A stretch of DNA of 64,000 nt from an uncultured virus (IMG/VR IMGVR_UViG_3300025853_000056). Lineage: Duplodnaviria > Heunggongvirae > Uroviricota > Caudoviricetes. This document shows positions 1 to 19,369 of this stretch, piece after piece. The stretch lies in the IMG/VR virus record IMGVR_UViG_3300025853_000056; one strand, 5' to 3'. Numbering within the stretch: the first letter of the stretch is position 1; each line of letters starts with the position of its first letter. The translations under genes were made by a program, and so were the position numbers. Under the pieces are notes generated by a model. That model saw only the letters and a program-made list of their open reading frames with translations, ran no database searches and was not told the origin of the DNA.

Positions 1-28
1 AGGCCACCGCAATCCCTATTTCAAAGTG

Positions 29-105
29 GTGTGGCTTTTATGCAGTTACCACACGGGCGATGAAAATAACCAGTCCAATTCATTGTAAAGACCGCTGCAT
101 TGCCC
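29..105 (-). ncRNA. Candidate structured (pseudoknotted) RNA, family unknown
   Basis: Non-coding gap with pairings GGGC/GCCC, CGGUC/GACUG and GUGUGG/CCACAC; loop UAACUGCA is complementary to upstream UGCA and GUUA. Confidence 0.35.
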
Positions 106-112
106 AAGATAA

Positions 113-838
113 TCAGGCTTGATGTTGAGCCAAGTCCTGTTTTAATTCTTCGAGACTACTATAACACGCTTCGTCATCATAGTCAACATAAAAGTAGTCT
201 TCCACATATTTATGCATTCCAGCTTCATGTCCACGGCCACCAGATTTAATGCACTTCAAGACTTGGTAATTTTCAAGACCTTCGACTTCTACGTCTTCAT
301 ACTCTGCAATATCCCACTCTTCAAGGATTTCCTTTTTACCATTCGTTATAGTATAAACTTCACCATAACCTTGTTCCTCTTCCCATTCTACAGTGATGAC
401 ATGCTTGGGAAATTTGAGACTAAGATGATGAATCCAGTTATAAGGCTCTTCCCACGGAGTTTGAAATCCAACTTCTTCAGAATTACAGTAATCTGTTTGA
501 GCATTCCACTTACATCCCCAATTCTTTACGCACCAATCATACCAATCACTTGCACCATACAATTCAAGAAATCGCTCCTTGTCTTTTTCAGTCATTGGAA
601 TTAGATGCTGCCGATTACCATATTCCAATTTGCCTTTTATAATCTCTTTTGCTTGTTCTTCCAGTGATACTGTGGAACCTGTCCAGTAGTCTTTAAGGTC
701 AGGTGGGATAGGCATAATAAGCTCGAAATCTACATCCCTCGTCCCGAAATCACCATCTATTTTACCGAATGTGTCATTAGTAATAGCGTTAATGACATCA
801 GTATGTGCAGATAATTTAACATTAACCCAATTTGGCAT
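113..838 (-). CDS. DUF1281/YubB ferredoxin-like domain phage protein (start revised to ATG 838, MPNW...)
   Basis: MPNW N-terminus, DFELIMPIP, WYDWCVKNWGCKWNA and FQTPW motifs. Confidence 0.75.
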   Translation of the reverse strand: MPNWVNVKLSAHTDVINAITNDTFGKIDGDFGTRDVDFELIMPIPPDLKDYWTGSTVSLEEQAKEIIKGKLEYGNRQHLIPMTEKDKERFLELYGASDWYDWCVKNWGCKWNAQTDYCNSEEVGFQTPWEEPYNWIHHLSLKFPKHVITVEWEEEQGYGEVYTITNGKKEILEEWDIAEYEDVEVEGLENYQVLKCIKSGGRGHEAGMHKYVEDYFYVDYDDEACYSSLEELKQDLAQHQA

Positions 839-854
839 ATATTTTAGTAAGTAG

Positions 855-875
855 GTGGGGGGCAATGCCCCCCAC
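855..875. other. Perfect 9-bp GC hairpin (terminator or RNA stability element)
   Basis: GTGGGGGGC-AAT-GCCCCCCAC between two ORFs; no clear U-tract. Confidence 0.5.
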
Positions 876-880
876 GATTG

Positions 881-1342
881 TTATTTAGACACTATTTCAC
901 GACCCATATGGAGAACTGCTTCCAGCTCTTTTAGGTCACCGATGGAGATACTATCCCTTCTTTTCGTCACCATGTCAAACAATTCTTGAGTCAAACTGCT
1001 GACCACATCCTTCAAGAACACATTTGAGTGCTCTTTGGGAATAGACCCCTTATCGAGTCTTTCCTTGAACGATGATTCGATCAGGTTCTCAACTAGAGCG
1101 GTGATACTCACATCCTCTATTGAGGACATGACTTTCGCAGCTTCCAGATGCTGACCTTTTAATCTGAAACAAGACCCTTGCTTTGTAGAAGTCGCTTTTA
1201 AGGGCAACTGCTTTTGCGAGGATTGTTTATCTGTGAAAACAATCCTACTCTTGGTCTCAGGGCGTAAAGTCGCCACAGGAGCATAGTAGTGATTGCCGTA
1301 TTTGCTTAGGACCTTAACTGTCTTAACTGTTCTTTTTGGCAT
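881..1342 (-). CDS. Putative ribbon-helix-helix DNA-binding protein
   Basis: CFRLKGQHLEAAKVMSSIEDVSITALVENLIE fits the RHH strand-helix-helix pattern. Confidence 0.5.
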   Translation of the reverse strand: MPKRTVKTVKVLSKYGNHYYAPVATLRPETKSRIVFTDKQSSQKQLPLKATSTKQGSCFRLKGQHLEAAKVMSSIEDVSITALVENLIESSFKERLDKGSIPKEHSNVFLKDVVSSLTQELFDMVTKRRDSISIGDLKELEAVLHMGREIVSK

Positions 1343-1349
1343 ATGTATT

Positions 1350-1571
1350 TTAGCTTATTGTTCTCACTCTCCTCAGTGAATCGTAGGCTTGGCCGATACG
1401 ACTCACATTAGATTCATACATGTATAACGCAGTTGATTCTGAAATGCAAGCTTTTTTCATCCTGCTTTTTTCTTGGTCAACCAACTTGTGGGCGTTATTC
1501 AGTGCTGATAGAATCACAGATTCTAAAAGCGTGTGGGTTCTCAGATCGAGCTGATTATCGGAATGACTCAT
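1350..1571 (-). CDS. Hypothetical protein (likely start ATG 1571, MSHSDN)
   Basis: ORF packed in the minus-strand operon. Confidence 0.55.
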   Translation of the reverse strand: MSHSDNQLDLRTHTLLESVILSALNNAHKLVDQEKSRMKKACISESTALYMYESNVSRIGQAYDSLRRVRTIS

Positions 1572-1806
1572 ATTGACGAATGATTGAATCTTCATTCAGT
1601 ATCTGAGGTTCCACGGTATATTGCAAGCCATTTTTTTCCATAGCTCTTGAAAACACACCCCAGTCGCAATCTTCTTCCAAAAAGGCATAACCAGCAGCCT
1701 TATATGAGTAATGCGAGATTTTGTCAACTATATTTAGTCGTTGTAGCAATTTGATTGGCACACGCAGCCAACCGTGACCCGGATCTATTGTAGCAATAAG
1801 TTTCAT
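1555..1806 (-). CDS. Conserved small phage protein
   Basis: DPGHGWL...SYK...FLEEDCD motif recalled from phage hypothetical proteins. Confidence 0.65.
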   Translation of the reverse strand: MKLIATIDPGHGWLRVPIKLLQRLNIVDKISHYSYKAAGYAFLEEDCDWGVFSRAMEKNGLQYTVEPQILNEDSIIRQYESFR

Positions 1807-1807
1807 A

Positions 1808-2131
1808 TTAGAATTGTGATTTGTTGTAATTGTATTTCAATAATGCGAGCCTGTCAACTTTTTGTCCTTTAGTGTTTGTCTTTTTTTTGCAGAATTTTTT
1901 AAATGCTGCTGCCCACTCTTCTCTAGTTCCCATGTAGCTTTCTTCATCGTATGGAGTGTGTTGAAAGCCATACTTACTTGTCGCGTAGTCATGAACCTTC
2001 TCTGGTCTCCAGTATTTAGAAGTCAAGCTAATTTTAGCTTTTTTTATTCTTGCAAGTTCCGCAGGAACTAAGCTAGTCCAAGGAACTTTGTCTTCGTGTT
2101 TTTTGCCTTTGCTTTTGAAGTTAATCTTCAT
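1808..2131 (-). CDS. Basic hypothetical protein
   Basis: Lys-rich ORF directly behind a leaderless promoter. Confidence 0.7.
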   Translation of the reverse strand: MKINFKSKGKKHEDKVPWTSLVPAELARIKKAKISLTSKYWRPEKVHDYATSKYGFQHTPYDEESYMGTREEWAAAFKKFCKKKTNTKGQKVDRLALLKYNYNKSQF

Positions 2132-2137
2132 AACTCA

Positions 2138-2165
2138 ACTATACGCTGTGAGAATAAGGTGTCAA
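2138..2165 (-). promoter_or_regulatory. Sigma70-type leaderless promoter
   Basis: TTGACA-16-TATAGT-6 nt-ATG(2131). Confidence 0.75.
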
Positions 2166-2195
2166 ACTAATATTCTAATATTCTAATAGAATATA

Positions 2196-2281
2196 CAACT
2201 CCTTGCGAAGCAAGGAGTTACGTTGGGGCCCCCGGCGGCGTAACCCCCTGATAATCAAGGGGTTACGTGATATAGTTTATA
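2196..2281 (+). repeat. Element E1 (25-20-25 bp plus TATA box), core forward
   Basis: caactccttgcgaagcaaggagtta|cgttggggcccccggcggcg|taaccccctgataatcaaggggtta|cgtga|tatagtttata. Confidence 0.9.
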
Positions 2282-2519
2282 TTAATTCTTCTATTTTAAG
2301 TTTTTCCATAAAGTCATCTTTATACATGTCTGCCATATCATGGTCGATGCGGCGATTTAATTTATCATTCAAGTAGTCGAACAGACCAATAAGCTCATGA
2401 ATAGAAAGATCCTCTACCCAATCCATGTAGACAATTTTAGGATCTAGCATTAATGCTCGCCACGCAATCTCTTCCACATAACCTTGCTCCAATAAAACAG
2501 ATAGTTTTTCTTTTTTCAT
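2277..2519 (-). CDS. Hypothetical protein (likely start ATG 2519, MKKEKL)
   Basis: ORF abutting the upstream gene; its stop codon lies inside the E1 TATA box. Confidence 0.6.
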   Translation of the reverse strand: MKKEKLSVLLEQGYVEEIAWRALMLDPKIVYMDWVEDLSIHELIGLFDYLNDKLNRRIDHDMADMYKDDFMEKLKIEELI

Positions 2520-2520
2520 A

Positions 2521-2850
2521 TTAATCTTTTGAAGCTGAATCGTAGAATAATCCATAAGATGGACTGAAGTGTAACACTTGCTCAATGATCATGTAAGCTA
2601 AATTTTCCATCAGCTTATTGAGTCCCTCAGAGGTAGGATATTGTTTCAATTCTAAGTCACGATCATGCAGGTGTGCGTAAACCGATTCGTAAAAATCGGG
2701 ATCTTCAAATCGAATCATTTCAACCAATTTCCAACATGCCCGATTATCTATTGTGAATAAGCTCGCATAAGCGTGAGGGCTTCCAAAACCTTGATTGATA
2801 GCCTTGGCCAAGTTGCTCATGGTCTGATTGAATTCTTCGAAGGTTTTCAT
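2521..2850 (-). CDS. Hypothetical protein
   Basis: ORF, 1-nt spacing to neighbours. Confidence 0.7.
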   Translation of the reverse strand: MKTFEEFNQTMSNLAKAINQGFGSPHAYASLFTIDNRACWKLVEMIRFEDPDFYESVYAHLHDRDLELKQYPTSEGLNKLMENLAYMIIEQVLHFSPSYGLFYDSASKD

Positions 2851-2851
2851 A

Positions 2852-3046
2852 TTAATCTTTTTCTATTTGATCAGTGATATCATCAAGTATGTGAAGTATG
2901 CCACCAAGACTCTGAATCTTTTTTGGCAGAGAGATTGGGTAGTCATCATAATGTGATTCAAGAAATCCAATAACATCTAATAAATCGCATTTTTGCTCGA
3001 ATAGCAGTTTTGCATCAATGTTTTCAATGGTGGCGGTGTGTCTCAT
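2852..3046 (-). CDS. Hypothetical protein
   Basis: ORF, 1-nt spacing to neighbours. Confidence 0.7.
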   Translation of the reverse strand: MRHTATIENIDAKLLFEQKCDLLDVIGFLESHYDDYPISLPKKIQSLGGILHILDDITDQIEKD

Positions 3047-3047
3047 A

Positions 3048-3242
3048 TTATTGTGGGCAAAGTTCTCGAAAGATCTTTTTCATTTCTTCTGGGGATATTT
3101 CGTCTGTCTGTTTTTTAGTCTTGGTGGCGACCACCTTCTTCATTTTTAATTGTTGAACAGGTAGATCAGTCGATGTGATTTCTGACACGATGCCTTTTTT
3201 AATGCACCGCTTAACAAGGGCTGCGTATTTTTCTTTTGTCAT
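3048..3242 (-). CDS. Hypothetical protein
   Basis: ORF in tight operon. Confidence 0.65.
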   Translation of the reverse strand: MTKEKYAALVKRCIKKGIVSEITSTDLPVQQLKMKKVVATKTKKQTDEISPEEMKKIFRELCPQ

Positions 3243-3247
3243 AATTT

Positions 3248-3625
3248 TTATTCAGCTAACCATTTGGCCTTGATTTTATTTTTGTCATACATTTTGACAA
3301 ACTTGTTGATCTCATTAGCAAGATCATCATGGTAGACATCTTTATATGCTCTGGCCAAAAGGTCAAGAGCTTTTTCAAATCTTAGTTCGGTGGGTTTTTT
3401 GAATTTATAGCGAAACATTACAATTTCATCAATAGCACGATGATCCCAATCACCATTGAAGTACTGAGCTTGATAACGAATCAACTTTGCGACTTGTTCA
3501 ACCGTGCATTCGATTGGTTGAAACTCTTTTCGTCCGTAACCCTCAAAATCATCTATGGATAAATGATTTAGATCGGCGTCTGATTTAGCGATGCGAATCG
3601 CTTGGTTCATATCGGCAATGTTCAT
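3248..3625 (-). CDS. Hypothetical protein (likely start ATG 3625)
   Basis: ORF; TTGACT -35-like hexamer at 3656-3661 upstream. Confidence 0.7.
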   Translation of the reverse strand: MNIADMNQAIRIAKSDADLNHLSIDDFEGYGRKEFQPIECTVEQVAKLIRYQAQYFNGDWDHRAIDEIVMFRYKFKKPTELRFEKALDLLARAYKDVYHDDLANEINKFVKMYDKNKIKAKWLAE

Positions 3626-3735
3626 AAGCAATATTTAATAACAAAATGAGTTGAGAGTCAATAAAAAATAATCAATGTCAAACGATAAATAAGTAAATAA
3701 TAAATAATAAAAAAATACAATATAATTAATATCCA

Positions 3736-3821
3736 TAAGTCCTTGAGAATCAAGGACTTACGTTGGGGCCCCCGCCGCTGTAACCTCTTGATAATCAAGA
3801 GGTTATGAATTATAATTTATA
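3736..3821 (+). repeat. Element E2, core forward
   Basis: taagtccttgagaatcaaggactta|cgttggggcccccgccgctg|taacctcttgataatcaagaggtta|tgaat|tataatttata. Confidence 0.92.
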
Positions 3822-3829
3822 AAAGGGGC

Positions 3830-3985
3830 TCAGTCGCCCGTGTCGAAGCGACTCTCGAAGTAAGAGTCAACGTCATCCTCGCGTAGCTCGTTACGCGCCA
3901 GCCAGTGGCCGTAACAATCGTGGTCGAAGTCGTCGGGGTAGACCTCCTCGCAGGAGGGTTGCCAGTGGTTCAATTCATCGTTCAT
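3830..3985 (-). CDS. Small acidic protein, 51 aa (absent from the ORF track)
   Basis: MNDELNHWQPSCEEVYPDDFDHDCYGHWLARNELREDDVDSYFESRFDTGD; preceded by TTGACA-17-TAGATT-6-ATG. Confidence 0.75.
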   Translation of the reverse strand: MNDELNHWQPSCEEVYPDDFDHDCYGHWLARNELREDDVDSYFESRFDTGD

Positions 3986-4028
3986 AAGAATAATCTACTA
4001 TAAAAAAAGACCTTTGTCAACAAAAAGT

Positions 4029-4220
4029 TTAGTGGGTCGCGCCACATGACAGACAGGTGCGTGGTGCTCGCCAGACCAGCTCTTCTGTGCCGTCGGCGTT
4101 GTGGCACATCACGCTAGTGCCGATCAGAGCGGCACGGCGAATGGCTGCGTTCAGCCCCCTGCGCGATGCGCTGTAGCGCATGGTGAAACCGGGGATGTAG
4201 TAGAATTTCATATTTTCCAT
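4029..4220 (-). CDS. Small protein with C-terminal CxxC (start revised to ATG 4220, MENMKF)
   Basis: TATGCT-6-ATG geometry as for other early genes. Confidence 0.65.
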   Translation of the reverse strand: MENMKFYYIPGFTMRYSASRRGLNAAIRRAALIGTSVMCHNADGTEELVWRAPRTCLSCGATH

Positions 4221-4226
4221 GCGTCT

Positions 4227-4278
4227 AGCATAGCATAAGGGGTAGGACAAAAGCTGTCCAACCCCAAAAAAAGTGAAA
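4227..4278 (-). promoter_or_regulatory. Class-II early promoter with palindromic operator, copy 1
   Basis: TATGCT -10 six nt before ATG; 36-bp block 4243-4278 identical to 5402-5437 and containing GGACA-AAAGC-TGTCC. Confidence 0.65.
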
Positions 4279-4326
4279 CTTTTTTTTTGGGGTAAGGTTG
4301 GCACGGTTCTTGTATTTCACTTTTTG

Positions 4327-4412
4327 TAAACCGTTGATAATCAACAGGTTATGTCGCGGGGGGCCCCAACGTAAGTCGTTGACTACGAGGGGTTTACGAA
4401 TTATAATTTATA
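4327..4412 (+). repeat. Element E3, core inverted
   Basis: taaaccgttgataatcaacaggtta|tgtcgcggggggccccaacg|taagtcgttgactacgaggggttta|cgaat|tataatttata. Confidence 0.9.
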
Positions 4413-4418
4413 TAATGT

Positions 4419-4443
4419 TTTGGGCTGGCGTTGCCAGCCCAAA
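4419..4443. other. 11-bp hairpin after the 4449-4649 stop codon
   Basis: TTTGGGCTGGC-GTT-GCCAGCCCAAA. Confidence 0.5.
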
Positions 4444-4448
4444 GGGGG

Positions 4449-4649
4449 TCAGTCAACCCGTTGGATTTTACCAATGATGCTGCCCTTGGTGAAGGAGCGG
4501 ATGCCATATTGCTGATGCTCCCCGCTGTATTTGTAGGCGGTGAAGAAGTGGGGCTTGTCAACGATAGGGCCAGAGGTCACATAAGTGTTGACAGTTCCGT
4601 CTTGGCGTTTGTAAACGAACGTGTATTTTTCAGTAGGGAATGATTGCAT
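4449..4649 (-). CDS. Hypothetical protein
   Basis: ORF co-oriented with neighbours and followed by a hairpin. Confidence 0.65.
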   Translation of the reverse strand: MQSFPTEKYTFVYKRQDGTVNTYVTSGPIVDKPHFFTAYKYSGEHQQYGIRSFTKGSIIGKIQRVD

Positions 4650-4679
4650 ATTATTTTTCGCTTTCTGTTTATTGTTAAA

Positions 4680-4907
4680 TTAGTATTTGACGGTCCAAGC
4701 ATGTTTGCTGACTAATTTTGCACGAACTTCGGTCAAGGAGTCAACAACTTTCTTTAGTTCTTCTGCGAAGTATTTTGGGCCAAGGTCTTGATATTTGACC
4801 ATGCCGTTAGCATGAGCCTCAAGGGTTCCAGTGATGGAGGCGAGGTAAGCGGTGATAGCGAACTCACTGTCTTGTTCGTCGGTGTAATCTTTAATGTTTT
4901 CGTTCAT
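4680..4907 (-). CDS. Hypothetical protein
   Basis: Preceded by TTGACA-17-TAAATT-6-ATG. Confidence 0.75.
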   Translation of the reverse strand: MNENIKDYTDEQDSEFAITAYLASITGTLEAHANGMVKYQDLGPKYFAEELKKVVDSLTEVRAKLVSKHAWTVKY

Positions 4908-4945
4908 ACAAGTAATTTAGTGCAATTTTTATTGTTTGTCAAATT

Positions 4946-5152
4946 TTATTTGACCCAATCTTCAGCGCATTTCACCCAAGCATTTCCGTCAATGATTGTT
5001 CTTTCAAACTGTTCTATGACCTGCTCGCGTTTCTTGATCATTTTTTCAGCATACATTTCCATCGCCTGAATCATGAACAACTGATGCAATGGACCTTCAC
5101 TCGCGTATTCGGTGATGATGTCCATATTTGTCATATTGTCGATATTTGTCAT
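4946..5152 (-). CDS. Hypothetical protein (start revised to ATG 5152)
   Basis: TTGCAA-17-CATAAT-6-ATG. Confidence 0.7.
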   Translation of the reverse strand: MTNIDNMTNMDIITEYASEGPLHQLFMIQAMEMYAEKMIKKREQVIEQFERTIIDGNAWVKCAEDWVK

Positions 5153-5190
5153 ATTCAAATTATGGTAAAAAATGGAAAGCATTGCAAGAA

Positions 5191-5379
5191 TTATTTTTGA
5201 ATTATTTTCGCAACCCGCAGGTCGATTGTTCCCCACTTGCCCTGACTTGGGCCTTCGAGATATTCGCCAGTCACGGAATCACCGCGCTGGGTGCTAGGAA
5301 AGATGCGGACCTTCACGCCATTGAAGGTCATGATATTTTTGTTGTTAGTCAACTCTGGATTTATCATTAATGTTTTCAT
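5191..5379 (-). CDS. Hypothetical protein
   Basis: ORF behind class-II promoter copy 2. Confidence 0.7.
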   Translation of the reverse strand: MKTLMINPELTNNKNIMTFNGVKVRIFPSTQRGDSVTGEYLEGPSQGKWGTIDLRVAKIIQK

Positions 5380-5385
5380 GCTATA

Positions 5386-5437
5386 AGCATAGCATACACC
5401 CTAGGACAAAAGCTGTCCAACCCCAAAAAAAGTGAAA
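5386..5437 (-). promoter_or_regulatory. Class-II early promoter with palindromic operator, copy 2
   Basis: Same agcatagcata and 36-bp taggacaaaagctgtccaaccccaaaaaaagtgaaa block as 4227-4278. Confidence 0.65.
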
Positions 5438-5470
5438 AAAAGTTTTTTGAAAAAAAGTCTTGACATTGCA

Positions 5471-5556
5471 TAAGCCGTTGATAATCAACAGGTTACATTG
5501 GGGCCCCCCATCGCGTAACTCATTGATATAGAACAACTTATAGAATATAATTTATA
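5471..5556 (+). repeat. Element E4, core forward
   Basis: taagccgttgataatcaacaggtta|cattggggccccccatcgcg|taactcattgatatagaacaactta|tagaa|tataatttata. Confidence 0.9.
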
Positions 5557-5560
5557 TTAT

Positions 5561-5595
5561 AAAACAAAAAGGGAGGGAGCCGAAGCTCCCTCCTT
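5561..5595 (-). terminator. Rho-independent terminator
   Basis: GGAGGGAGC-TTCG-GCTCCCTCC followed by CTTTTTGTTTT on the minus strand. Confidence 0.85.
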
Positions 5596-5646
5596 GCGCA
5601 CTTAGATAAGTATGAACAAGACCAAACGAGTTAGGTAGAAAGTCAA

Positions 5647-6090
5647 CTATAATTTATAAAAAATGTGGCGTCCGATCTTGGCGACAGGCTTTTCGCCTTT
5701 GGCCCAATATGGAGCCTTGATGTAATCGGCATAGTAATGGTTGGCGTTGCCGATCTTCGAGCGATCAATGCGGTGCATATTTTTGGCAAGGTAGATTGCC
5801 ATTTCTGCTTGCGGGACATCTAGCAGATGATCAAGGTCTGAGATCTTCTTGCCATTCCAACAAGAGAACTGCCATTTAGCTAAACAGACTTTTTCCCATG
5901 TTTGCTTGCGGTCGATTGCACGTTGAGCGATGACGGCTGCAACGGCTCCCATTCCTCTATCGCCTTCGCTCCTAGCTTCAGCAAGGATGGTGATTGCAAC
6001 CACTTGTTGTTCTTTAGTAAGTCCAGACTGTGCGCCCAGTGCCGCGATTGATTGTGATATAAGAAGGACATATAGTGCGATTGTTTTCAT
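5647..6090 (-). CDS. Cell wall hydrolase, SleB/CwlJ (Hydrolase_2) family, with signal-like N-terminus
   Basis: ILAEARSEG...AVAAVI, QFSCWN, ANHYY, PYWA, IGRHIFY. Confidence 0.9.
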   Translation of the reverse strand: MKTIALYVLLISQSIAALGAQSGLTKEQQVVAITILAEARSEGDRGMGAVAAVIAQRAIDRKQTWEKVCLAKWQFSCWNGKKISDLDHLLDVPQAEMAIYLAKNMHRIDRSKIGNANHYYADYIKAPYWAKGEKPVAKIGRHIFYKL

Positions 6091-6096
6091 ACGTAT

Positions 6097-6124
6097 AAGA
6101 TAACAGATTTTGAGTTAGTGTCAA
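6097..6124 (-). promoter_or_regulatory. Leaderless promoter (extended -10), repeated at 6486-6513 and 7039-7066
   Basis: TTGACA-16-(TGT)TATCTT-ATACGT-ATG; TCTGTTATCTTATACGTATGAAA is shared by three genes. Confidence 0.8.
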
Positions 6125-6131
6125 CTATTTT

Positions 6132-6479
6132 TTATTCATCAAAAGCTTGCTCTGCAACCTTTAAGGCTTCGAGTATGTTATTTAGTTTTTGTAAAGTCGG
6201 TAGGTGTGAGGTTTTATAATTTAACGTGTTAATCTTCCAGAGGATTTCATTTATTGACTCAAGTAACACGCCTTTTTTCAATGGGTTTTTAGAGTCTTCA
6301 AGGTTAAGCTCTTTAATCTTTTGTGAAATTAATTTTTTGACCGCATTTGACAAGTTGTCATTATCGGCTTCTGCAATTAAATTAAGAGCTTCCGAATGAG
6401 ATTTATTTAAACGTAAAGAGGTTGGATTAAGCCTGTCTCCAGTTTGGAATCTTGGTCTTCTAGTTTTTTTTGTTTTCAT
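6132..6479 (-). CDS. Putative RHH/CopG-like DNA-binding protein (start revised to ATG 6479)
   Basis: TSLRLNKSHSEALNLIAEADNDNLSNAVKKLI; leaderless promoter geometry. Confidence 0.55.
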   Translation of the reverse strand: MKTKKTRRPRFQTGDRLNPTSLRLNKSHSEALNLIAEADNDNLSNAVKKLISQKIKELNLEDSKNPLKKGVLLESINEILWKINTLNYKTSHLPTLQKLNNILEALKVAEQAFDE

Positions 6480-6498
6480 ACGTATAAGATAACAGAAT

Positions 6499-7032
6499 TT
6501 AGGCAAGTGTCAAATGTTTTTTTATTCTATTCAATTTTTTATCGATCAACAAAAGTTTCGCTCGCTGTGTGTATAACTTCCTATTCTTAAGGACAGCGTT
6601 GAAAAAATCATTTGGGTTCATGCCTGAGTCTAGTATTAAATTGGCGATAGATTTAGCTGACAATTCGTATCCGCGTCGCAAGTAGAAAAAATACCCTACA
6701 TTTTTTAACAGCAATTCAGCTAATTCTTTTTTAGTGAAATCAGGAATTTTCCACCCCCAGAGTTTTTTAATCAGGTCTCTAGAATTAGGAAAGTTCAACT
6801 CGAATAAAGCCTCTTTTATCTTTTGCCTCCCTTCGTATTGCGCTTTTATTTCTTCTGCGTTTATTCCATCTATTTGATTAATCAGTTTCTCCATGTTTGC
6901 TCCGCAGCCACGAAGTCTTCTACAATGACCGCTAAGCAACATTATATCCCTTAATTGTTTCACGCTGTGGATTCGGTGTCTATCCAACAAGTTTTTGACT
7001 TTAGTTGGCAACTGTTGTTCGTTAAGTTTCAT
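6499..7032 (-). CDS. Protein with N-terminal RNA polymerase alpha-CTD-like (HhH) domain
   Basis: LPTKVKNLLDRHRIHSVKQL...RRLRGCGANMEKLI resembles the alphaCTD LxxRxxNxLxxxxIxxxxxL...LG pattern. Confidence 0.5.
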   Translation of the reverse strand: MKLNEQQLPTKVKNLLDRHRIHSVKQLRDIMLLSGHCRRLRGCGANMEKLINQIDGINAEEIKAQYEGRQKIKEALFELNFPNSRDLIKKLWGWKIPDFTKKELAELLLKNVGYFFYLRRGYELSAKSIANLILDSGMNPNDFFNAVLKNRKLYTQRAKLLLIDKKLNRIKKHLTLA

Positions 7033-7075
7033 ACGTATAAGATAACAGAATTTTTTATGAGTGCAAGAAAAAGTT

Positions 7076-7195
7076 TTAATTATTTTTAGCTAGTGCCATC
7101 CAACCACGGGCAACGCGCACCATTGTTCTGTGTCTGCGGATAGCGCGAGCGGGGATTTTGATCTGTTTCGTTTCGTTGTTTTCTTTATCTTTCAT
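7076..7195 (-). CDS. Small basic protein, 39 aa (absent from the ORF track)
   Basis: MKDKENNETKQIKIPARAIRRHRTMVRVARGWMALAKNN; TTGCTT-17-TTTAAT-6-ATG. Confidence 0.6.
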   Translation of the reverse strand: MKDKENNETKQIKIPARAIRRHRTMVRVARGWMALAKNN

Positions 7196-7256
7196 ACTGA
7201 AATTAAACCACAAATCAGAATAAAAAGCAAGAAAAAAAATAAAAAAGTTTCAGTTG

Positions 7257-7342
7257 TAAGTCGTTGATAATCAACGGGTTACAGCGCGGGGGGCCCCAAC
7301 GCAAGTCGTTGAGTGTGAAGGGTTTAGAAATTATAATTTATA
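7257..7342 (+). repeat. Element E5, core inverted
   Basis: taagtcgttgataatcaacgggtta|cagcgcggggggccccaacg|caagtcgttgagtgtgaagggttta|gaaat|tataatttata. Confidence 0.9.
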
Positions 7343-7507
7343 TTAGTAAGCTCTTTCCCCGCCTTTGACCCATAGGTCGTCGTTGTGAATGTCAACTTCA
7401 AGTTGTTGTGCTTTGCGTTTTATCCACTGTTTCATTTCGGGAGATACAGTCCAGACCTTTTGGACTGGGACCTCGAACTTGGTTGGTTTGGTAAACTCAA
7501 TTTTCAT
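7343..7507 (-). CDS. Small protein, 54 aa (absent from the ORF track)
   Basis: MKIEFTKPTKFEVPVQKVWTVSPEMKQWIKRKAQQLEVDIHNDDLWVKGGERAY; stop codon abuts E5. Confidence 0.65.
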   Translation of the reverse strand: MKIEFTKPTKFEVPVQKVWTVSPEMKQWIKRKAQQLEVDIHNDDLWVKGGERAY

Positions 7508-7519
7508 AACTCAATTCAA

Positions 7520-7717
7520 TTACATTTCAGGGAAAGCGTCAACAAGAAAATTTGCGATTCCTCCATCATACATTTTATTGACAAGCTTAATCTTTCGGTG
7601 AAAGCTATATTCTGCGATCACATCCCATTCCTCCTCTGTGGTGGCACATTCGCACAGCCAATCTTCGAGTCTGTGATTGAGTTCGTCCATTGTGATTTTG
7701 GTGATTGCTGCGCTCAT
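7520..7717 (-). CDS. Small acidic protein (start revised to ATG 7717)
   Basis: MSAAITKITMDEL..., 1 nt after the upstream stop. Confidence 0.65.
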   Translation of the reverse strand: MSAAITKITMDELNHRLEDWLCECATTEEEWDVIAEYSFHRKIKLVNKMYDGGIANFLVDAFPEM

Positions 7718-7718
7718 G

Positions 7719-7892
7719 TTATGCGTCCCAGCTAAAAGGTTTTGCGTCTGCGCTACGTGTGTAAGGTTTGGCAAGGTGAGCTTTGCGAGCTGCTTCCTTC
7801 TCGTTGATTTCTTGTTGGATCAGCGCATCCAGTTCGGCGTTCAGTTCTGCGAACTCTTTCGCAATTTCGTTTCGTGTTCCGTTAACTTTCAT
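7719..7892 (-). CDS. Small helical protein, 57 aa (absent from the ORF track)
   Basis: MKVNGTRNEIAKEFAELNAELDALIQQEINEKEAARKAHLAKPYTRSADAKPFSWDA; TTGCAA-17-TACCTT-6-ATG. Confidence 0.7.
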   Translation of the reverse strand: MKVNGTRNEIAKEFAELNAELDALIQQEINEKEAARKAHLAKPYTRSADAKPFSWDA

Positions 7893-8230
7893 ACTTATAA
7901 GGTAGTCGAATCCGTCAACGATTGCAAGAAAAAGTTTTAATTATTTTTAACCTGCTACCCCTCCCCCCATTGTCTACAGCATCTGGTGTGCCAACCCTCC
8001 CCCCTTTTTCTAAAATATTTTTGAGATTGACTTTTGCTAAATAGGTGGGGGGACATTTTCTTCAATATGTAATTCATTTTCAGACAAACTAAACCCAACC
8101 AAAATAATAAAAACCCATACCCCTCCCCCATTTAATAAAAATCAATAAAATAAATAAGAAATCAGTATAAATAAGAATAAAAAAAAATAAGCGAGGCTTT
8201 TGAAATAGGGAAAATAATATAAATATTAAT

Positions 8231-8259
8231 TTGACAGCCGCCGACCTATTTGGTATTAT
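8231..8259 (+). promoter_or_regulatory. Sigma70-type promoter of the glycosylation operon
   Basis: TTGACA-17-TATTAT-7-ATG(8267). Confidence 0.75.
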
Positions 8260-8266
8260 ATAAGAT

Positions 8267-8581
8267 ATGGATTATTTAATGGTATACCTAGACGAGAACC
8301 GGGAAAAACGAGCTGCGATTCCTGATGATGAAGGAGTGTACTACGATTCGGTTGACTTTGAGGAATATACTGAAGATATGTCTGCAATGGAAGTAGTAGT
8401 ATTACAATCAGAAGATTTTTATAATAAAGTTAGAGATCCTGATTCTGAAGGCAAGTTTTTCACATGTGAGTTTGCGGGTAGATATGTATCTAATATGAAA
8501 GTGTGTGATACTATAGAAAGTGTTGGATTTACTACATTTTTTACTACTGTTATTAATGAGCATATAAGAAATGACGAATAA
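8267..8581 (+). CDS. Acidic hypothetical protein
   Basis: ORF behind the promoter, 2 nt before the next gene. Confidence 0.7.
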   Translation: MDYLMVYLDENREKRAAIPDDEGVYYDSVDFEEYTEDMSAMEVVVLQSEDFYNKVRDPDSEGKFFTCEFAGRYVSNMKVCDTIESVGFTTFFTTVINEHIRNDE

Positions 8582-8583
8582 AC

Positions 8584-11500
8584 ATGAATTACTTTATAAC
8601 ACATTGTGATAAGAATTATATAAAATATGCCGAAAGACTATTTGAAACACTAAAAAGATATTCTAAATATAAAATTATATTCTTATCTATTGATTTTGAT
8701 TATAAAAATCGTTTTGATAACGTAATAAATATAAAATGTGATGTTTCTGGCTTAGTAGGTAAAAAAGGAAACGATTTATTAAACTCTTTGAACGGTGATG
8801 CCAAATCTTACCATGTGTTTTTGAAGCCATTATTAATAAAAAAGCTAATAGAAGATGAATTTATAGAGGTAAAGCCCGAAGACAATTTTTGTTACTTAGA
8901 TTCAGATTGTTTCGTAATGAAAAATTGTGATGATATTTTTAATAAAATTTCAAATATAACATATTACCCATTATTTACTGTGGGTTGTCAAGAGTATATG
9001 ATGTTTGGGAATAGGGGTAATCCTTTCGCAAATGAAGGTTTTGATTTAAAATTAACTTTAGAAGCCCCTTTGATGGAATTTCTGAAAATAGATATTAATT
9101 TAAGAACTTCGACGTATTTACAAACTGGAGCATTTATTTTTAACAGTAAATGTTATGATTTTATAAAAGAATGGTTTAGTACTTGTTTCTTTAAAATACC
9201 TTTCAAAGATGTGGCTTTTTTAGCTCCTTTCCACGAAGAAACAGTTGCTAACTGTCTACTGTGGAAAAACAAAGTAAATAAAAATTTAGGAAGATCTTTA
9301 ATTAATGTTATTGAAGGAAAACATCAAGATTTATTAAAGATGGTGGACTCAATAAATAATCCTCAATCAAATTTAATTAGATTGACAAATTATTGTGCTA
9401 TACCGGGTGAATCTGAAATAGAGGATTTATACTTTTACCATCGAAGAGTTGAAAATGATGTTTATGAATTTTTAATCAGTAAAGATGCTGAAATAAAATG
9501 TAAGAATAAAAAAATTATATTTTTAGCCCCTCACTTGTCTACTGGTGGATCTCCTTCGTATTTAAAATGGTTAATCGAGAAAAAATTATCAGAAAATTAT
9601 TCTGTTAAAGTTATTGAGTACTGTTTTTACGGCGCTGATTATGTAGTACAGAGAAACCAAATAATAAATCTTGTCGGAGAAGAAAATTTCTTAAGTTTTG
9701 GATATATCCATGATTCTTATGAAAAATATGAACAGAAAACACCGTTACTTATAGATTATATCAATAAAGAAAACGCATCGGAGATACATCTGAATGAAAT
9801 CGTTGAAGATTTTTCAGCGAAACCAATAACTGATGGATTAAAGGAATTTTTATACTCAAAGAACAGGAAATTTAAAATTTTTGAAACGTGCCATAATTCT
9901 ACGTTTAATTTCCAAAACAAAGTTTTATTACCTGACGAATTCCATTTTTGCTCTCCTTTCCACTTGAAAGTCTCAGAAAATTTAAATGTTCCTAAAAAAA
10001 TAGTAGAAATGGAAATACCTAAAAAGATGCGTCCAGAAAGATCAGGCGCTTTAGAAAAATTAGGATTATCTCCAGATTGCTTTCATGTGCTTAATGTTGG
10101 TTTATTCATGGTAAATAAAAATCAAAAATATATATTTGACCTTGCTGAAAAACTACAACATAAAAATATACAATTTCATTTTGTTGGCAACACTTGTTTT
10201 TTAAATGATTGTGGTTTAACAGAAACTCAAAAGAATTTACCGAATTGTATCGTGCATGGCGAAAAGGATAATGTTGCTGATTATATGGCGGCAATGGATT
10301 TGTTTTTATTTCCTTCTTTGCTTGAATTAAATCCCATAGCACTTAAAGAAGCTATAAGTTGGAACATGAATATATTTTTAAATAATTTAGATGTATATGC
10401 AGGTTCTTTCGATAATAATCAGTTAGTTACTTATATAGAAGGTGATAACTTGTTCAATTATCTAAATTCTGATAAAATAGCCAAAATAGATATGGACATA
10501 ACCGACAACAACAATATTGACATCTCTTTTAATCAAGAAGCTAAGGTTGAAATTTTAGGATCTCAAAGTTTTAATTATGATATAAAATTTTTAAATTATA
10601 ATAATGAGATAGCTTATTCAACACGACTGTCTACAAATATGTGGGCTGCATGTAGTAGTATAGATCGTAGCGGTAAAGTTTTAGTTACTAATTTATCGAA
10701 TAATAAAACTTTAGAATTTGGATTTCAAAATACAAATTTAATTAATGAGTCAGGATCTTTAGGGGATAGTTTAGCTTGGCTTCCTGTTGTTAATCAATAC
10801 GCCGTAAAAAATAATTTAAAAATTAATTATTACACTCCTAATAAAGTTCTATTTGATAAATCTAAATATCCTTTAATTTCTTTTCATGATTACGCCGATC
10901 AAAAAAATATAACTGATAAAAGTTCTATTACTAAAATTGGATGTTTTGAAAAAGAAAAATTAGCAATTCCTTTGCAGCAATTAGTTGGAGATATATTGGG
11001 GGTTCAAGTAGATGGCTCTGAAGATTTTAAGCCAGCTATAGATCCTTCATTCATAAAAGAAAGACCGTTTGACAAAAAGTATGTTTGCATAGCTACTCAT
11101 TCTACTGCTCAGCTTAAATTTTGGAATAATAAATCTGGTTGGAAAAAAACGATTAGCTATTTAAAGTTTTTAGGATATGAAGTCGTTTGCATTGATAGGT
11201 ATAATAGTTATGGTAGAGATCAGTTTATGAATCCAATACCTAAAGAAGCAATACATTATCCGGGGGAGTCATTAGGAGATATTGTGAATTGTTTATATCA
11301 TTGCGAATTCATGATAGGGTTGAGTTCTGGATTATCATGGTTAGCTTGGGCTTGTAATAAACCAGTGGTAATGATTTGTGGTTTCTTAGAAAAAGAATAT
11401 CATTTTGATACGCCTTATTATATTCAAAATAAACAAGTATGTAATTGTTGTTGGAATGATCCTAGTCAACATTTCGATGCGAATAATTGGACATGGTGTG

Positions 11501-11595
11501 GAAAAAGTAAAGATTTTGAATGTTCAAAAAAGATATCTTTTGATATGATGAAAAACACAATTAATAAATTAAGAAAGGATTTTAGTTTAATATGA
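8584..11595 (+). CDS. Multidomain glycosyltransferase: GT-A-like N-terminus, GT4 middle, C-terminal Aah/TibC-like heptosyltransferase
   Basis: YLDSD (DxD); PHLSTGG, AMDLFLFPSLLELNPIALKEA; SLGDSLAW, STAQLKFWN, GLSSGLSWLAWA, CNCCW...WC...FECSKKI. Confidence 0.85.
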   Translation: MNYFITHCDKNYIKYAERLFETLKRYSKYKIIFLSIDFDYKNRFDNVINIKCDVSGLVGKKGNDLLNSLNGDAKSYHVFLKPLLIKKLIEDEFIEVKPEDNFCYLDSDCFVMKNCDDIFNKISNITYYPLFTVGCQEYMMFGNRGNPFANEGFDLKLTLEAPLMEFLKIDINLRTSTYLQTGAFIFNSKCYDFIKEWFSTCFFKIPFKDVAFLAPFHEETVANCLLWKNKVNKNLGRSLINVIEGKHQDLLKMVDSINNPQSNLIRLTNYCAIPGESEIEDLYFYHRRVENDVYEFLISKDAEIKCKNKKIIFLAPHLSTGGSPSYLKWLIEKKLSENYSVKVIEYCFYGADYVVQRNQIINLVGEENFLSFGYIHDSYEKYEQKTPLLIDYINKENASEIHLNEIVEDFSAKPITDGLKEFLYSKNRKFKIFETCHNSTFNFQNKVLLPDEFHFCSPFHLKVSENLNVPKKIVEMEIPKKMRPERSGALEKLGLSPDCFHVLNVGLFMVNKNQKYIFDLAEKLQHKNIQFHFVGNTCFLNDCGLTETQKNLPNCIVHGEKDNVADYMAAMDLFLFPSLLELNPIALKEAISWNMNIFLNNLDVYAGSFDNNQLVTYIEGDNLFNYLNSDKIAKIDMDITDNNNIDISFNQEAKVEILGSQSFNYDIKFLNYNNEIAYSTRLSTNMWAACSSIDRSGKVLVTNLSNNKTLEFGFQNTNLINESGSLGDSLAWLPVVNQYAVKNNLKINYYTPNKVLFDKSKYPLISFHDYADQKNITDKSSITKIGCFEKEKLAIPLQQLVGDILGVQVDGSEDFKPAIDPSFIKERPFDKKYVCIATHSTAQLKFWNNKSGWKKTISYLKFLGYEVVCIDRYNSYGRDQFMNPIPKEAIHYPGESLGDIVNCLYHCEFMIGLSSGLSWLAWACNKPVVMICGFLEKEYHFDTPYYIQNKQVCNCCWNDPSQHFDANNWTWCGKSKDFECSKKISFDMMKNTINKLRKDFSLI

Positions 11596-11960
11596 ATATA
11601 GAAGTTTCAAATGGTGAAATCTTAGATAAGATAACAATTTTAAGATTAAAACTAGAGCATATACACGATCAGCAGAAAAGAGCCAATATAATTAAAGAAT
11701 ATGATTTTTTAAAAGATATCTCAGATGAGATTGATTATCCAGAAGATTTATATGAACAATTATATTTAGTTAATAAAGCTTTATGGAGAATTGAAGATGA
11801 TATTCGCAATAAAGAGAGAAATCAAGAATTTGATGAGGAATTTATTAAGCTGGCTCGATCTGTTTATTTCACTAATGATAAAAGATCGGAAATTAAAAAA
11901 CAAATAAATTTAAAAACTGAGTCTCAATTTATAGAGGAGAAGTCTTATGAAAAATATTGA
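11592..11960 (+). CDS. DUF6165-like protein
   Basis: VSNGEILDKITILRLK...LWRIEDDIR...FIKLARSVYFTNDKRSEIK...EEKSY. Confidence 0.8.
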   Translation: MNIEVSNGEILDKITILRLKLEHIHDQQKRANIIKEYDFLKDISDEIDYPEDLYEQLYLVNKALWRIEDDIRNKERNQEFDEEFIKLARSVYFTNDKRSEIKKQINLKTESQFIEEKSYEKY

Positions 11961-12585
11961 TGACATTACTTATAATGAAATTTTTAATCACAATTGCTAT
12001 CAGAAATTCGTTGATGTAGAGGACGGTGATTTTGTTTTAGATTTGGGATGTTCACAAGGTCCATTCTTTTTCAGGAATCGTGATAAAAAAATTACTTACG
12101 TAGGTGTCGATGCAAGTATCAATTGTATTAAGGATTTTTATAGTAATTTAGATGAGGGGGATTCTCCTATTATTATAAATTCTTTCTTGAGTAATGAGCT
12201 AAGTGTTTTACCATTTGAGTGGTACATATACGACACTCCCCCCAGAGAAGTAAATTCTATAACTTTTCCTTCTTTGCTAAAAATGATAAATAGAAAAATA
12301 GATTTTTTGAAATTTGATATAGAAGCTTATGAAAAACTAATACTTGTAAAACATTATGATTTATTTAAAAGCAGAGTGAAAAAGTTTGCTGGAGAAATTC
12401 ATTTTGGCGCACAATCGATTTTCTCAAGAGAAGATGTTTATCAAATGTTAGAAAAATTAAAAAATGATATTGATATATTCTTTAGATTATATGCATTGGA
12501 CGGAGTAGATATCAGTGATTCCTTTTGGCAAAATAAAAATTTCTTTACAGAAGTTATTATAAATGGATATATAGGAAGAAACTAA
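11947..12585 (+). CDS. FkbM-like SAM-dependent methyltransferase
   Basis: VLDLGCSQG and IDFLKFDIEAYE motifs. Confidence 0.75.
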   Translation: MKNIDDITYNEIFNHNCYQKFVDVEDGDFVLDLGCSQGPFFFRNRDKKITYVGVDASINCIKDFYSNLDEGDSPIIINSFLSNELSVLPFEWYIYDTPPREVNSITFPSLLKMINRKIDFLKFDIEAYEKLILVKHYDLFKSRVKKFAGEIHFGAQSIFSREDVYQMLEKLKNDIDIFFRLYALDGVDISDSFWQNKNFFTEVIINGYIGRN

Positions 12586-13628
12586 TTAATTAATGATTTA
12601 AAAATCATTTCATATTGGTTGCATTGTATTTCTACGGTGAAATTATGCATAGCGTTTCTTAGACAATTTTCTGGATTGATTTCTTTATAACCTTTTCTTA
12701 TTGCAAAATTAAATTGATTGTAAGTGGAGCATCTAAATCCAGTGTACCCCTGCTTAACCGTCTCAGTAAAACCCCCAAAGTCTGTGGTTATGGTGGGTGT
12801 GCCTGAAAATTGAGCTTCTATTACAGCCCAATTACAAGGTTCAACAAAAAAACTAGGAGCTAATAAAAATTTGGCTTCAGACAGTAATTTTTTTCTTTCT
12901 TCTGGTTCTACAAATCCAATCATTTTACAGTATTTAGTGTCTTTTAGTCCTAATATATTAGGTCCGGCAAAATATATTTCTTGTCCGACAGTGTTGCACA
13001 TGTCGTATGCGGCTTTAACTCCTTTTAATTCTATCATTCTACCAAGAAAAAGTGCTACATTTGATTTTTCTTTTTTATATAAAAAATCTTTTTGATAGAA
13101 ACCCGGATAAGCTACAAATTCTTCATGAAATTGAACGTTAGATTTTGCTACTCCGTGCATTTTATGCATTTGAGCATATGTTTCAAATATTTTAATTTGT
13201 GCAAACATTGAATCATAACCGATGCTTGGTTCAACAATTATAGCTTTATCATTAAAATGTTTAGCGCATGGTCCATGTGCGTAACCAAACCAGCATAATA
13301 TAAATTCGTTTTCTGATTTTATTCTTTTATTTAATTCTTGTATACAATTATTATTAAAGATTTTTACAGCTTTAGCTTCAACGCTTTGATTAAATCCTTC
13401 AGTTTTCCATTTATTTAAATCTTCATAGCTTTCTTTTAGTATATCATCATTTGTAACGGTTATATGTTCTGTGCAGTTCACTTTGGAGTTTTCGTGTCCA
13501 TAATGATATACGGTATGACCACGTTTCGTCATTTCTTCGCAGAATTTATAAACTTTCTGAGTGAAAGCGCATAAAGAAATTTCTTTTCTTGTCGGAGTAT
13601 ATGGAACACTTAAACAATGGAAAATCAT
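12582..13628 (-). CDS. Glycosyltransferase family 4
   Basis: LFLGRMIELKG, LLAPSFFVEP, IEAQFSGTPTITTDFGGFTETV. Confidence 0.9.
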   Translation of the reverse strand: MIFHCLSVPYTPTRKEISLCAFTQKVYKFCEEMTKRGHTVYHYGHENSKVNCTEHITVTNDDILKESYEDLNKWKTEGFNQSVEAKAVKIFNNNCIQELNKRIKSENEFILCWFGYAHGPCAKHFNDKAIIVEPSIGYDSMFAQIKIFETYAQMHKMHGVAKSNVQFHEEFVAYPGFYQKDFLYKKEKSNVALFLGRMIELKGVKAAYDMCNTVGQEIYFAGPNILGLKDTKYCKMIGFVEPEERKKLLSEAKFLLAPSFFVEPCNWAVIEAQFSGTPTITTDFGGFTETVKQGYTGFRCSTYNQFNFAIRKGYKEINPENCLRNAMHNFTVEIQCNQYEMIFKSLIN

Positions 13629-13656
13629 CTATATATAGTGTAATAATAATTACTAT

Positions 13657-14388: not shown

Positions 14389-14412
14389 TATATTGATATA
14401 TATAATATATCA

Positions 14413-15478: not shown

Positions 15479-15480
15479 TT

Positions 15481-19314: not shown

Positions 19315-19369
19315 AAATAAAAGTTAAAAAGTCACTTTGAAAGTAACTTTGTGTAAGTATAATATAGAT

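Follow-up and report, generated by a model that had tools for sequence, protein, structure and literature searches.

A repeated element between groups of small genes

The window analysed here is a 64,000-nucleotide stretch of the uncultured virus IMGVR_UViG_3300025853_000056, a long-tailed phage (PHROGs comparisons recognized a 2,666-aa tape measure, a large terminase (TerL) and three tail-fibre proteins of 1,900–2,075 aa), and our subject is a set of five copies (E1–E5) of an 86-base repeat that lies between groups of small genes. These small genes occupy the minus strand of positions 1–8131, and plus-strand genes begin at 8267. Megablast of positions 1–12000 against cultured phages returned no match and TerL reached ~27% identity at most in tblastn against them, so we assigned neither a cultured relative nor a host. 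Our comparison set comprised ~120 related contigs, and a metagenome scan had yielded 117 loci in addition to the related records; across this family, core genes are conserved (TerL is 87–92% identical, a sigma-like protein 75–82%) around a hypervariable small-gene block. The limited literature searched contained no published description of the element family. A crAss-like or N4-like virion polymerase with hairpin promoters, suggested by the four proteins of 1,900–2,700 aa, was rejected, the PHROGs comparisons having returned tape measure, tail fibres and TerL.

Each element consists of a 25-bp arm, a 20-bp core, a second 25-bp arm, a 5-bp spacer and an 11-bp box (Table 1), with start positions and geometry exactly as given in the initial annotation of this DNA. 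The box is TATAATTTATA in E2–E5 and TATAGTTTATA in E1, and is itself a palindrome about its central T. The core lies forward in E1, E2 and E4 and reverse-complemented in E3 and E5, again as annotated: with up to one mismatch, TTGGGGCCCC matched five times in 64 kb, only within elements, on the plus strand in the former three and on the minus strand in the latter two (0.84 matches expected; 0 of 100 shuffles reached five). At the same tolerance, the window held 26 matches to TATAATTTATA (8.66 expected) and 21 to the arm-centre motif TTGATAATCAA (4.81 expected), and a repeat search recovered the family as D1/D2 and the inverted pairs I1–I4. A sixth element, E0, which has no box, lies ~110–190 bp to the left of window position 1 on a related contig (L148) that is identical to the window start. 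The idea that avoidance of GGCC-type sites makes the cores special was discarded, because GGCC (46 observed, 56 expected) and GGGGCCCC (five observed, five expected) showed no avoidance.

When E1, E2 and the reverse complements of E3 and E5 were aligned core-forward, they read ...GA(C/G)TT(A/G)-CGTTGGGGCCCC...-TAACC, the half beside CGTT being ...GACTTA or ...GAGTTA, which bears out the annotated behaviour of the inner arm halves, namely that they travel with the core. An E2-like ancestor with a 45-bp inversion bounded by its arm centres would give exactly E5, and the arm halves of E4 are mixed, as had been noted. Both arms had been described as 25-bp imperfect palindromes; their length stands, but the right arms of E3–E5 are poor palindromes, with 5–6 of 11 possible Watson–Crick pairs.

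A predicted promoter facing the preceding gene

On the plus strand, all right arms and boxes together form TTGAnn-17 bp-TATAAT, a near-consensus sigma-70 form that a consensus scanner placed among the best matches in positions 1–9000 (9–11 of 12 positions; Table 1). Of 23 distinct elements with a box, drawn from the window and related sequences, 21 retain TTGAnn and 22 retain TATAAT. Right-arm positions that make up the −35 carry 1.55 bits on average, versus 0.82 at their mirror positions, whereas the left arm is symmetric (1.42 versus 1.61), and on average 8.1 of 11 Watson–Crick pairs form in the left arm and 5.7 of 11 in the right. In the related record G002, the 17-bp spacer between the −35 and −10 hexamers of the E4 orthologue has been replaced, with its length and both hexamers unchanged. 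Because of the −35 asymmetry, the poor pairing and this constant spacer length, the right arm appears to be kept by selection as part of a promoter and not as a second hairpin. The fallback offered in the initial annotation, a non-recombinational paired protein-binding site, fits the left arm well.

The preceding gene, on the minus strand, converges on the element, and the predicted promoter would point into its 3′ end. Stop codons do abut the box, as previously reported, but their owners are the right-hand minus-strand genes converging on the box, which differs from the next-block layout that had been proposed. We regard the box-adjacent minus-strand open reading frames (ORFs) as real genes, because substitutions between diverged orthologues fall mostly at the third position of the minus frame (by codon position, 0/2/7, 4/1/43, 29/21/121 and 10/3/36 for four genes; the E1-adjacent gene had too few substitutions to judge) and because the frames of these four stay open in 15 of 15 ungapped orthologues. 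A first automatic count of ORFs running in the same direction as the box promoter was discarded, since these proved to be alternative-start ORFs antisense to real genes.

The earlier view that the TATA-like box makes each cassette self-promoted is therefore not supported: the box promoter faces the adjacent gene, and the next cassette has a sense promoter of its own, a more variable sigma-70 sequence 30–75 bp to the left of the element (found by the scanner downstream of E1, E3 and E4, Table 1; those of E2 and E5 were spotted by eye). Promoters scoring at least 8/12 and ending 4–9 nt before an ATG precede 12 of the 57 gene starts, compared with 139 of all 2084 ATGs (6.7%), so the phage seems to use a sigma-70-like class, and a −10 hexamer only 4–9 nt from the ATG implies many leaderless messages. 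In the sister lineage formed by records G003 and G005, sigma-54-like TGGCACG-N4-TTGC boxes stand at the convergent stop codon, replacing the sigma-70 box.

Starts of the leaderless type, with no Shine–Dalgarno sequence, were seen for 1808–2131, 3830–3985, 5647–6090, 6132–6479, 8267–8581, 14413–14775 and others; messages of this kind, if widespread, would be informative about the host.

The box might instead be read on the gene strand, as a −35-less sense promoter (TATAAATTATA) used by a phage sigma-like protein in the manner of T4 late promoters, with the arms as a 5′ leader. All exact boxes share the central base relative to gene direction, including those that have no −35, and a 237-aa protein encoded at 14765–15475 (plus strand), conserved in relatives (75–100% identity in four of the five related records, no match in G001), weakly resembles region 2 of sigma-70 (Pfam, E 9.3e-5, short of the cut-off) as well as a PHROG sigma factor (E 4.6e-5), and may be a phage sigma factor. 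However, the plus-strand virion genes are preceded by TATAAT-4–7 nt-ATG and not by TATAAATTATA, each cassette already has a sense promoter beside its start codon, and the conserved TTGAnn at 17 bp on the opposite strand would be left unexplained, which together make this reading improbable.

Arms as candidate protein-binding sites

Across an alignment of 121 arms (119 distinct), columns A2, A3, T23 and T24 are invariant, T9 and A17 are nearly so, and column 25 is A or G. Because pairing in the distinct arms (79.2% of cells) is barely above that obtained with shuffled 3′ halves (77.3%), and because columns 4 and 22 are unpaired in 50 arms and columns 7 and 19 in 69, the arm halves seem to behave as near-independent draws from a pool of TAA-N4-TTGA half-sites. 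Mismatches are balanced (48 G·T versus 50 A·C), and neither strand folds appreciably better than the other (arms z −2.3 to −6.3); together with the weak pairing constraint, this makes a duplex-DNA site bound by a symmetric or bending protein more likely than a hairpin selected in RNA or DNA. The positions that are conserved coincide with the IHF consensus WATCAANNNNTTR, which has 21 exact matches in 64 kb, 11 of them within the ten arms (20 halves) and the other 10 close to the 9.4 expected by chance.

Alternatively, the element could act as RNA in the sense minus-strand transcripts, as a terminator, 3′ stabiliser or RNase III-type processing site that divides early transcripts by cassette, like those of the T7 early region. 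This would suit the position of the elements directly after stop codons, the minus-strand folds whose stability greatly exceeds that of shuffled sequences (z −3.0 to −6.3), the terminator-like scores of the E1 and E2 left arms on the minus strand and the ~25-bp hairpins that core-arm-core units of the G003 type would give. Yet folding energy and the mismatch balance show no strand preference, pairing at variable columns is lost in 42–58% of arms, the box-side right arms make poor hairpins, the E3–E5 hairpins have no following U-run, and E4 lies outside the sense transcript because it sits between a canonical terminator and the next promoter. An Rfam search of positions 1–9000 at E up to 1 gave two sub-threshold chance matches, neither in an element, and on balance we consider an RNA role unlikely.

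Mosaic junctions among related phages

Over window positions 3820–11281, record G004 and the window are 99.92% identical. This stretch ends on the left at the outer edge of the E2 box, against which G004 has an extra small gene inserted; beyond it, identity is 96% and then 79–89%. G002 has E2-, E3- and E4-like elements, a different E2–E3 cassette and neither E1 nor E5, and in addition has chains of the form arm-core-arm-core-arm, flanked by boxes on one side or on both; such a three-arm chain could plausibly have arisen when two adjacent elements fused arm by arm, although the cores match too poorly to show it. Three relatives (L164, L219 and L197) have the flanks of E1 but not E1 itself, and the nearest record, G001, has no cores. 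G003 and G005 contain core-arm-core units flanked by the TGGCACG-N4-TTGC boxes, one of which abuts a convergent stop codon.

A 16-kb locus of G003 (L134, G003 9000–25000) holds 26 copies of TGGCA(C/T)G-N4-TTGC, in inverted pairs around units and beside stop codons (for example, at 9362–9523); these could be sigma-54 promoters or another palindromic protein site.

Gene content switches at the elements, which supports their annotation as cassette borders: 16 of the 45 unique homology breakpoints fall within elements, which make up ~6% of the block. These 16 lie at the outer edge of the left arm (seven), the start of GGGGCCCC (two), the centre of the right arm (three), and the start (two) and end (two) of the box, corresponding to element positions 0/1, 34, 55, 75–76 and 85–86, and the right-arm centre of E5 (7311) is a recurrent breakpoint. 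The remaining breakpoints are mostly in repeated regulatory sequence, namely at 4424 beside a box (four), at 5596 by the terminator (three), in an arm-less box (two) and in the promoter repeat D3 (nine). One exchange can be followed base by base: in L264, two elements in the same orientation flank an 813-bp cassette that is the 222-aa gene cassette of G002, and E3 of the window matches one of these elements in its left part (45/45) and the other in its right part (one mismatch), the two parts being joined within GGGGCCCCAACG. Between the two elements, then, the whole cassette is either there or missing, and the junction falls within the core, in 12 nt that both elements share.

The initial annotation had explained the elements by dedicated site-specific recombination, integron- or shufflon-like, with the arms as sites and crossover at arm centres. 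Such exchange predicts the chimeric arms of E3 and E5, and the almost free assortment of half-arm types, the presence or absence of a cassette between directly oriented elements and the concentration of breakpoints in elements are all consistent with it. Other results speak against it. Orientation is identical at orthologous loci in 35 of 35 core-bearing, flank-anchored rows (E2 and E4 forward, E3 and E5 reverse, none flipped; 11 further rows have no core, the element being absent or displaced by an indel), in a contig-level comparison anchored on the 160 bp flanking each element, in which left- and right-anchored rows overlap and the sequences are related; fixed orientation is an outcome that the initial annotation had itself listed as refuting it. 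The elements do not appear to be an actively flipping recombinase switch. Nor is a single crossover at arm centres supported: junctions occupy at least five positions, among them the core, the arm's outer edge and either end of the box, and occur also at unrelated promoter repeats, a terminator and the arm-less box. No dedicated recombinase came to light, Phage_integrase (PF00589), Resolvase (PF00239) and Y1_Tnp (PF01797) being found in none of the five related records (the largest 114 kb and an estimated 78% complete) and no recombinase or Y1 transposase among the window ORFs scanned. The cassettes moreover carry their own promoters, and the sequence conservation of the element is promoter-like. 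We therefore rate site-specific recombination as highly improbable.

The flipped cores are best explained, on the pattern of arm halves, by a past inversion between arm centres and, taken together, the junctions suggest that any short stretch of identity between two copies can serve for exchange at the elements, and that no single point is set by a recombinase. G002 contains a RecA-family ORF (41.2 bits, cut-off 27); RecT and ERF were not found in the five related records.

The elements could also be selfish, non-autonomous mobile repeats of the MITE or REP/BIME type, with a transposase elsewhere and the promoter accidental. The family has traits expected of such repeats: its palindromic unit is dispersed in many copies, alternates in orientation, forms arm-core-arm-core-arm chains, varies in presence (E1 and E5 are absent from G002) and is widespread in metagenomes (117 loci). 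However, presence and absence involve whole flanking cassettes and not clean insertions, and no target-site duplication was seen by eye at element edges. The geometry relative to the promoter box is fixed and the −35 selectively conserved, and a Y1/RAYT-type transposase was not found in the five related records. We consider this origin very improbable.

Putative regulatory junctions as candidate recombination hotspots

We interpret E1–E5 as composite regulatory junctions, similar to the PeSLs (promoter-early stem-loops) of T4-type phages, that double as short-homology recombination hotspots, and give this interpretation a probability of roughly 0.6. Its general part, a junction repeat that is also a recombination hotspot through short homology, we hold with good confidence, whereas the specific mechanism of an antisense promoter combined with a protein site is more tentative, at or somewhat below even odds. 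Under this mechanism, each junction would hold two promoters back to back, separated by the left arm and the core. At the right edge, the TTGAnn of the arm and the TATAAT of the box, 17 bp apart, would fire into the 3′ end of the preceding gene; to the left of the element, the variable sigma-70 promoter would start the next cassette, often as a leaderless message. The left-arm palindrome, with its two inverted TAA-N4-TTGA half-sites equal to the IHF consensus, and the GGGGCCCC core would serve as duplex protein sites tuning one or both promoters. Host RNA polymerase starting at the box promoter would make antisense, convergent transcripts that could dampen the upstream cassette or insulate it, much as lambda oop does. 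Apart from any promoter role, arm centres, core and box would offer patches of homology at which general recombination (a RecA-family gene occurs in the family) or template switching might delete, insert or swap cassettes and convert sub-parts of elements. The reversed cores of E3 and E5 would then be the fossil of one inversion from arm centre to arm centre, later copied.

Several points weigh against this interpretation. We infer the promoter function of the element from consensus and conservation, and a strong promoter that has no co-directional gene is unusual, the sole co-directional ATG being that after E3. Exact boxes that have no −35 occur at window position 5648 and at L135 2814, 8332 and 10598, which a sigma-70 reading leaves unexplained, and some orthologous junctions have no box (E0, and E5-locus variants in L170, L168, L264, L248 and L177). 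Covariation within arms (0.203 versus 0.166) exceeds that of 500 of 500 shuffles, and some pairing constraint is therefore possible. The ~6-fold enrichment of breakpoints in elements comes from loci that an element pattern retrieved together with flanks of 1.5 kb, so that sequence near elements is over-sampled, and the 23 elements and 119 arms are related copies and not independent samples. As for the candidate protein, the IHF consensus is short and no HU/IHF protein gene was found in the phage family; IHF-type binding at the arms thus stays a lead.

The ATG after E3 opens a plus-strand ORF of 20 codons (4415–4477), 7 nt past the −10, which overlaps a tRNA-remnant hairpin and is not conserved in G002.

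A more elaborate proposal is a phage cassette platform, integron-like but with no integron integrase, in which each cassette has a promoter at its head and, at its tail, a conserved anti-promoter holding it in check, the IHF-type sites and GGGGCCCC core form a synapse, and an unrecognised enzyme excises and re-inserts circles. That enzyme could be an ERCC4-type nuclease (16548–17465) acting together with the RecA-family protein, or else a recombinase encoded where the genome has not been sequenced. We give this proposal a slim chance.

Relation to known systems

PeSLs of T4-type phages are described as composites of ~100 bp that combine a strong sigma-70-like promoter with the stop codon of the upstream gene and with a stem-loop, the last often formed by G-runs followed by C-runs and overlapping the −35 in one subclass. 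They occur in hyperplastic regions, where recombination between copies shuffles modules (Arbiol et al. 2010, PMC2839356; Comeau et al. 2014, PMC4122927). Measured against these accounts, E1–E5 likewise carry a strong sigma-70-like −35/−10, as judged by consensus (9–11/12) and conservation, have arms that fold (z −2.3 to −6.3), a right arm overlapping the −35 and a core with GGGGCCCC, although the promoter-side stem-loop is degenerate in E3–E5. They are also intergenic, their surroundings are a hyperplastic region rich in small orphan genes, the stop codon of the upstream gene falls within the motif or adjoins it, and they sit at indels and replacements among relatives (the breakpoints, the hybrid E3 and the gene inserted at the E2 box). 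The promoter of a PeSL drives the gene next downstream, whose Shine–Dalgarno sequence and start codon lie at the 3′ end of the motif. Unlike in the PeSLs so described, the conserved promoter here faces the convergent gene and the sense promoter of the next cassette is separate and variable, the geometry is rigid (25-20-25-5-11), the best-kept palindrome resembles a protein site of two half-sites and not a terminator, and genes here are mostly leaderless, with no Shine–Dalgarno sequence in the motif. The elements belong, moreover, to a siphovirus-like family and not to T4-type phages, and the comparison is one of sequence features. We would class E1–E5 with PeSLs in how they work in genome evolution but apart from them in architecture, because the conserved promoter does not face the downstream gene.

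REP/BIME sequences of enterobacteria are extragenic imperfect palindromes of alternating orientation that form linker-joined chains after gene ends, and those of the RIP/RIB type have an IHF site in the linker between palindromes. The chains of the E family, with adjacent cores in opposite orientation, resemble them, as do the position after gene ends and the link to the IHF consensus. Here, however, the IHF consensus is inside the arms and the linker is a GC core, in contrast to RIP/RIB, and E1–E5 differ from REP/BIME in being phage-borne and fused to a promoter, with a RAYT transposase (PF01797) in none of the five records. With integron attC and shufflon sfx sites, the elements share imperfect palindromes at cassette borders, cassettes present or absent between direct repeats and, at some positions, conservation of structure above sequence; they differ in having no cognate recombinase in the five (incomplete) records, several junctions, fixed orientation and cassettes with their own promoters.

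For cis-antisense control in phages there are two precedents. The promoter of lambda oop lies just past the 3′ end of a gene and points back into it. In the virulent phage PAK_P3, the cis-antisense RNAs described oppose mostly late structural genes and are made early (PMC4933390). E1–E5 would resemble these cases in having a promoter just beyond a gene's 3′ end that points back, with antisense shut-off proposed; the difference from the cases so described is that the module, here predicted from sequence, is conserved and repeated at every cassette border.

If our interpretation is true, the PeSL principle, that regulatory repeats double as seams for shuffling phage accessory genes, would reach beyond T4-type myoviruses to an unrelated and widespread family of uncultured siphovirus-like phages. 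Two features do not appear in the PeSL descriptions drawn on here: a conserved back-pointing promoter at each cassette border, which would be an antisense or insulation device, and the exchange of one promoter class for another at a position that sister lineages share (sigma-70 versus sigma-54-like). The hybrid E3 provides a base-level example of cassette loss or gain at 12 nt of shared sequence and, in annotation, the elements would reliably mark the borders of transcription units and cassettes in these phages.

Other features of the window

Coordinates of the elements, the predicted promoters and the neighbouring features are collected in Table 1.

Table 1 Elements, predicted promoters and other junction features (window coordinates).
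Feature	Position	Strand	Details
E1	2196–2281		Left arm 2196–2220; core 2221–2240, forward; right arm 2241–2265; box 2271–2281, TATAGTTTATA
E2	3736–3821		Left arm 3736–3760; core 3761–3780, forward; right arm 3781–3805; box 3811–3821
E3	4327–4412		Left arm 4327–4351; core 4352–4371, reverse; right arm 4372–4396; box 4402–4412
E4	5471–5556		Left arm 5471–5495; core 5496–5515, forward; right arm 5516–5540; box 5546–5556
E5	7257–7342		Left arm 7257–7281; core 7282–7301, reverse; right arm 7302–7326; box 7332–7342
Degenerate second box, left of E2	3721–3731		One mismatch
Arm-less exact box TATAATTTATA	5648–5658		Overlaps last codons and stop of gene 5647–6090; breakpoint in two relatives
E1 sigma-70-like promoter	2248–2276	+	CTGATA-17-TATAGT, 9/12; faces gene 2277–2555
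E2 sigma-70-like promoter	3788–3816	+	TTGATA-17-TATAAT, 11/12; faces gene 3830–3985
E3 sigma-70-like promoter	4379–4407	+	TTGACT-17-TATAAT, 11/12; faces gene 4449–4649
E4 sigma-70-like promoter	5523–5551	+	TTGATA-17-TATAAT, 11/12; faces terminator and gene 5647–6090
E5 sigma-70-like promoter	7309–7337	+	TTGAGT-17-TATAAT, 10/12; faces gene 7343–7507
Sense promoter, cassette downstream of E1	2138–2165	−	TTGACA-16-TATAGT, 6 nt before ATG 2131
D4 copy 1, sense-promoter module downstream of E3	4214–4278	−	TGGACA-17-TATGCT at 4260–4232; GGACA-N5-TGTCC palindrome
D4 copy 2, sense-promoter module downstream of E4	5373–5437	−	Promoter 5419–5391
D3 sense promoters	6081–6133, 6470–6522, 7023–7075	−	TTGACA-16-TATCTT, 6 nt before ATG; breakpoint sites
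Canonical intrinsic terminator	5572–5593	−	9-bp stem, T-run; between gene 5647–6090 and E4
Hairpin GGGCTGGC...GCCAGCCC	4418–4441	−	Position where G002 has tRNA-Lys(UUU)

Both promoter repeats, D3 and D4, are mosaic breakpoints, and L155 has lost gene 6132–6479 by deletion between D3 copies; D4 also contains a long A/T hairpin. In G002, tRNA-Lys(UUU) directly follows the E3-like box (L135 9301–9375), and the stem of the window hairpin at 4418–4441 matches its acceptor stem, so this hairpin is probably the acceptor-stem remnant of an internally deleted tRNA gene. Gene 5647–6090 encodes a cell-wall hydrolase (Hydrolase_2, E 7.8e-15). A conserved small RNA considered for the interval between the terminator and the arm-less box (5594–5647) was rejected, its sequence not being conserved in G002.

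Further along the window, positions 8584–13628 encode two glycosyltransferases (1,003 aa, GT1 and GT9; 348 aa, GT1), an FkbM-type methyltransferase and a DUF6165 protein, adjoining PhoH, a sugar-modification module that is unusual for a phage. The ERCC4-type nuclease (plus strand, PHROG E 1.3e-12) is encoded directly upstream of the large terminase gene and, being structure-specific, could act on branched or cruciform DNA. Over the whole window, GGATCC is absent (11.3 expected) and GATC mildly low (189 versus 222), which suggests restriction-site avoidance. In G003, the large terminase matches in two pieces (C1:35814–36077 and 37380–38993) within one 1,061-aa frame, the gene being split by an insertion of ~430 aa that would be an intein candidate.

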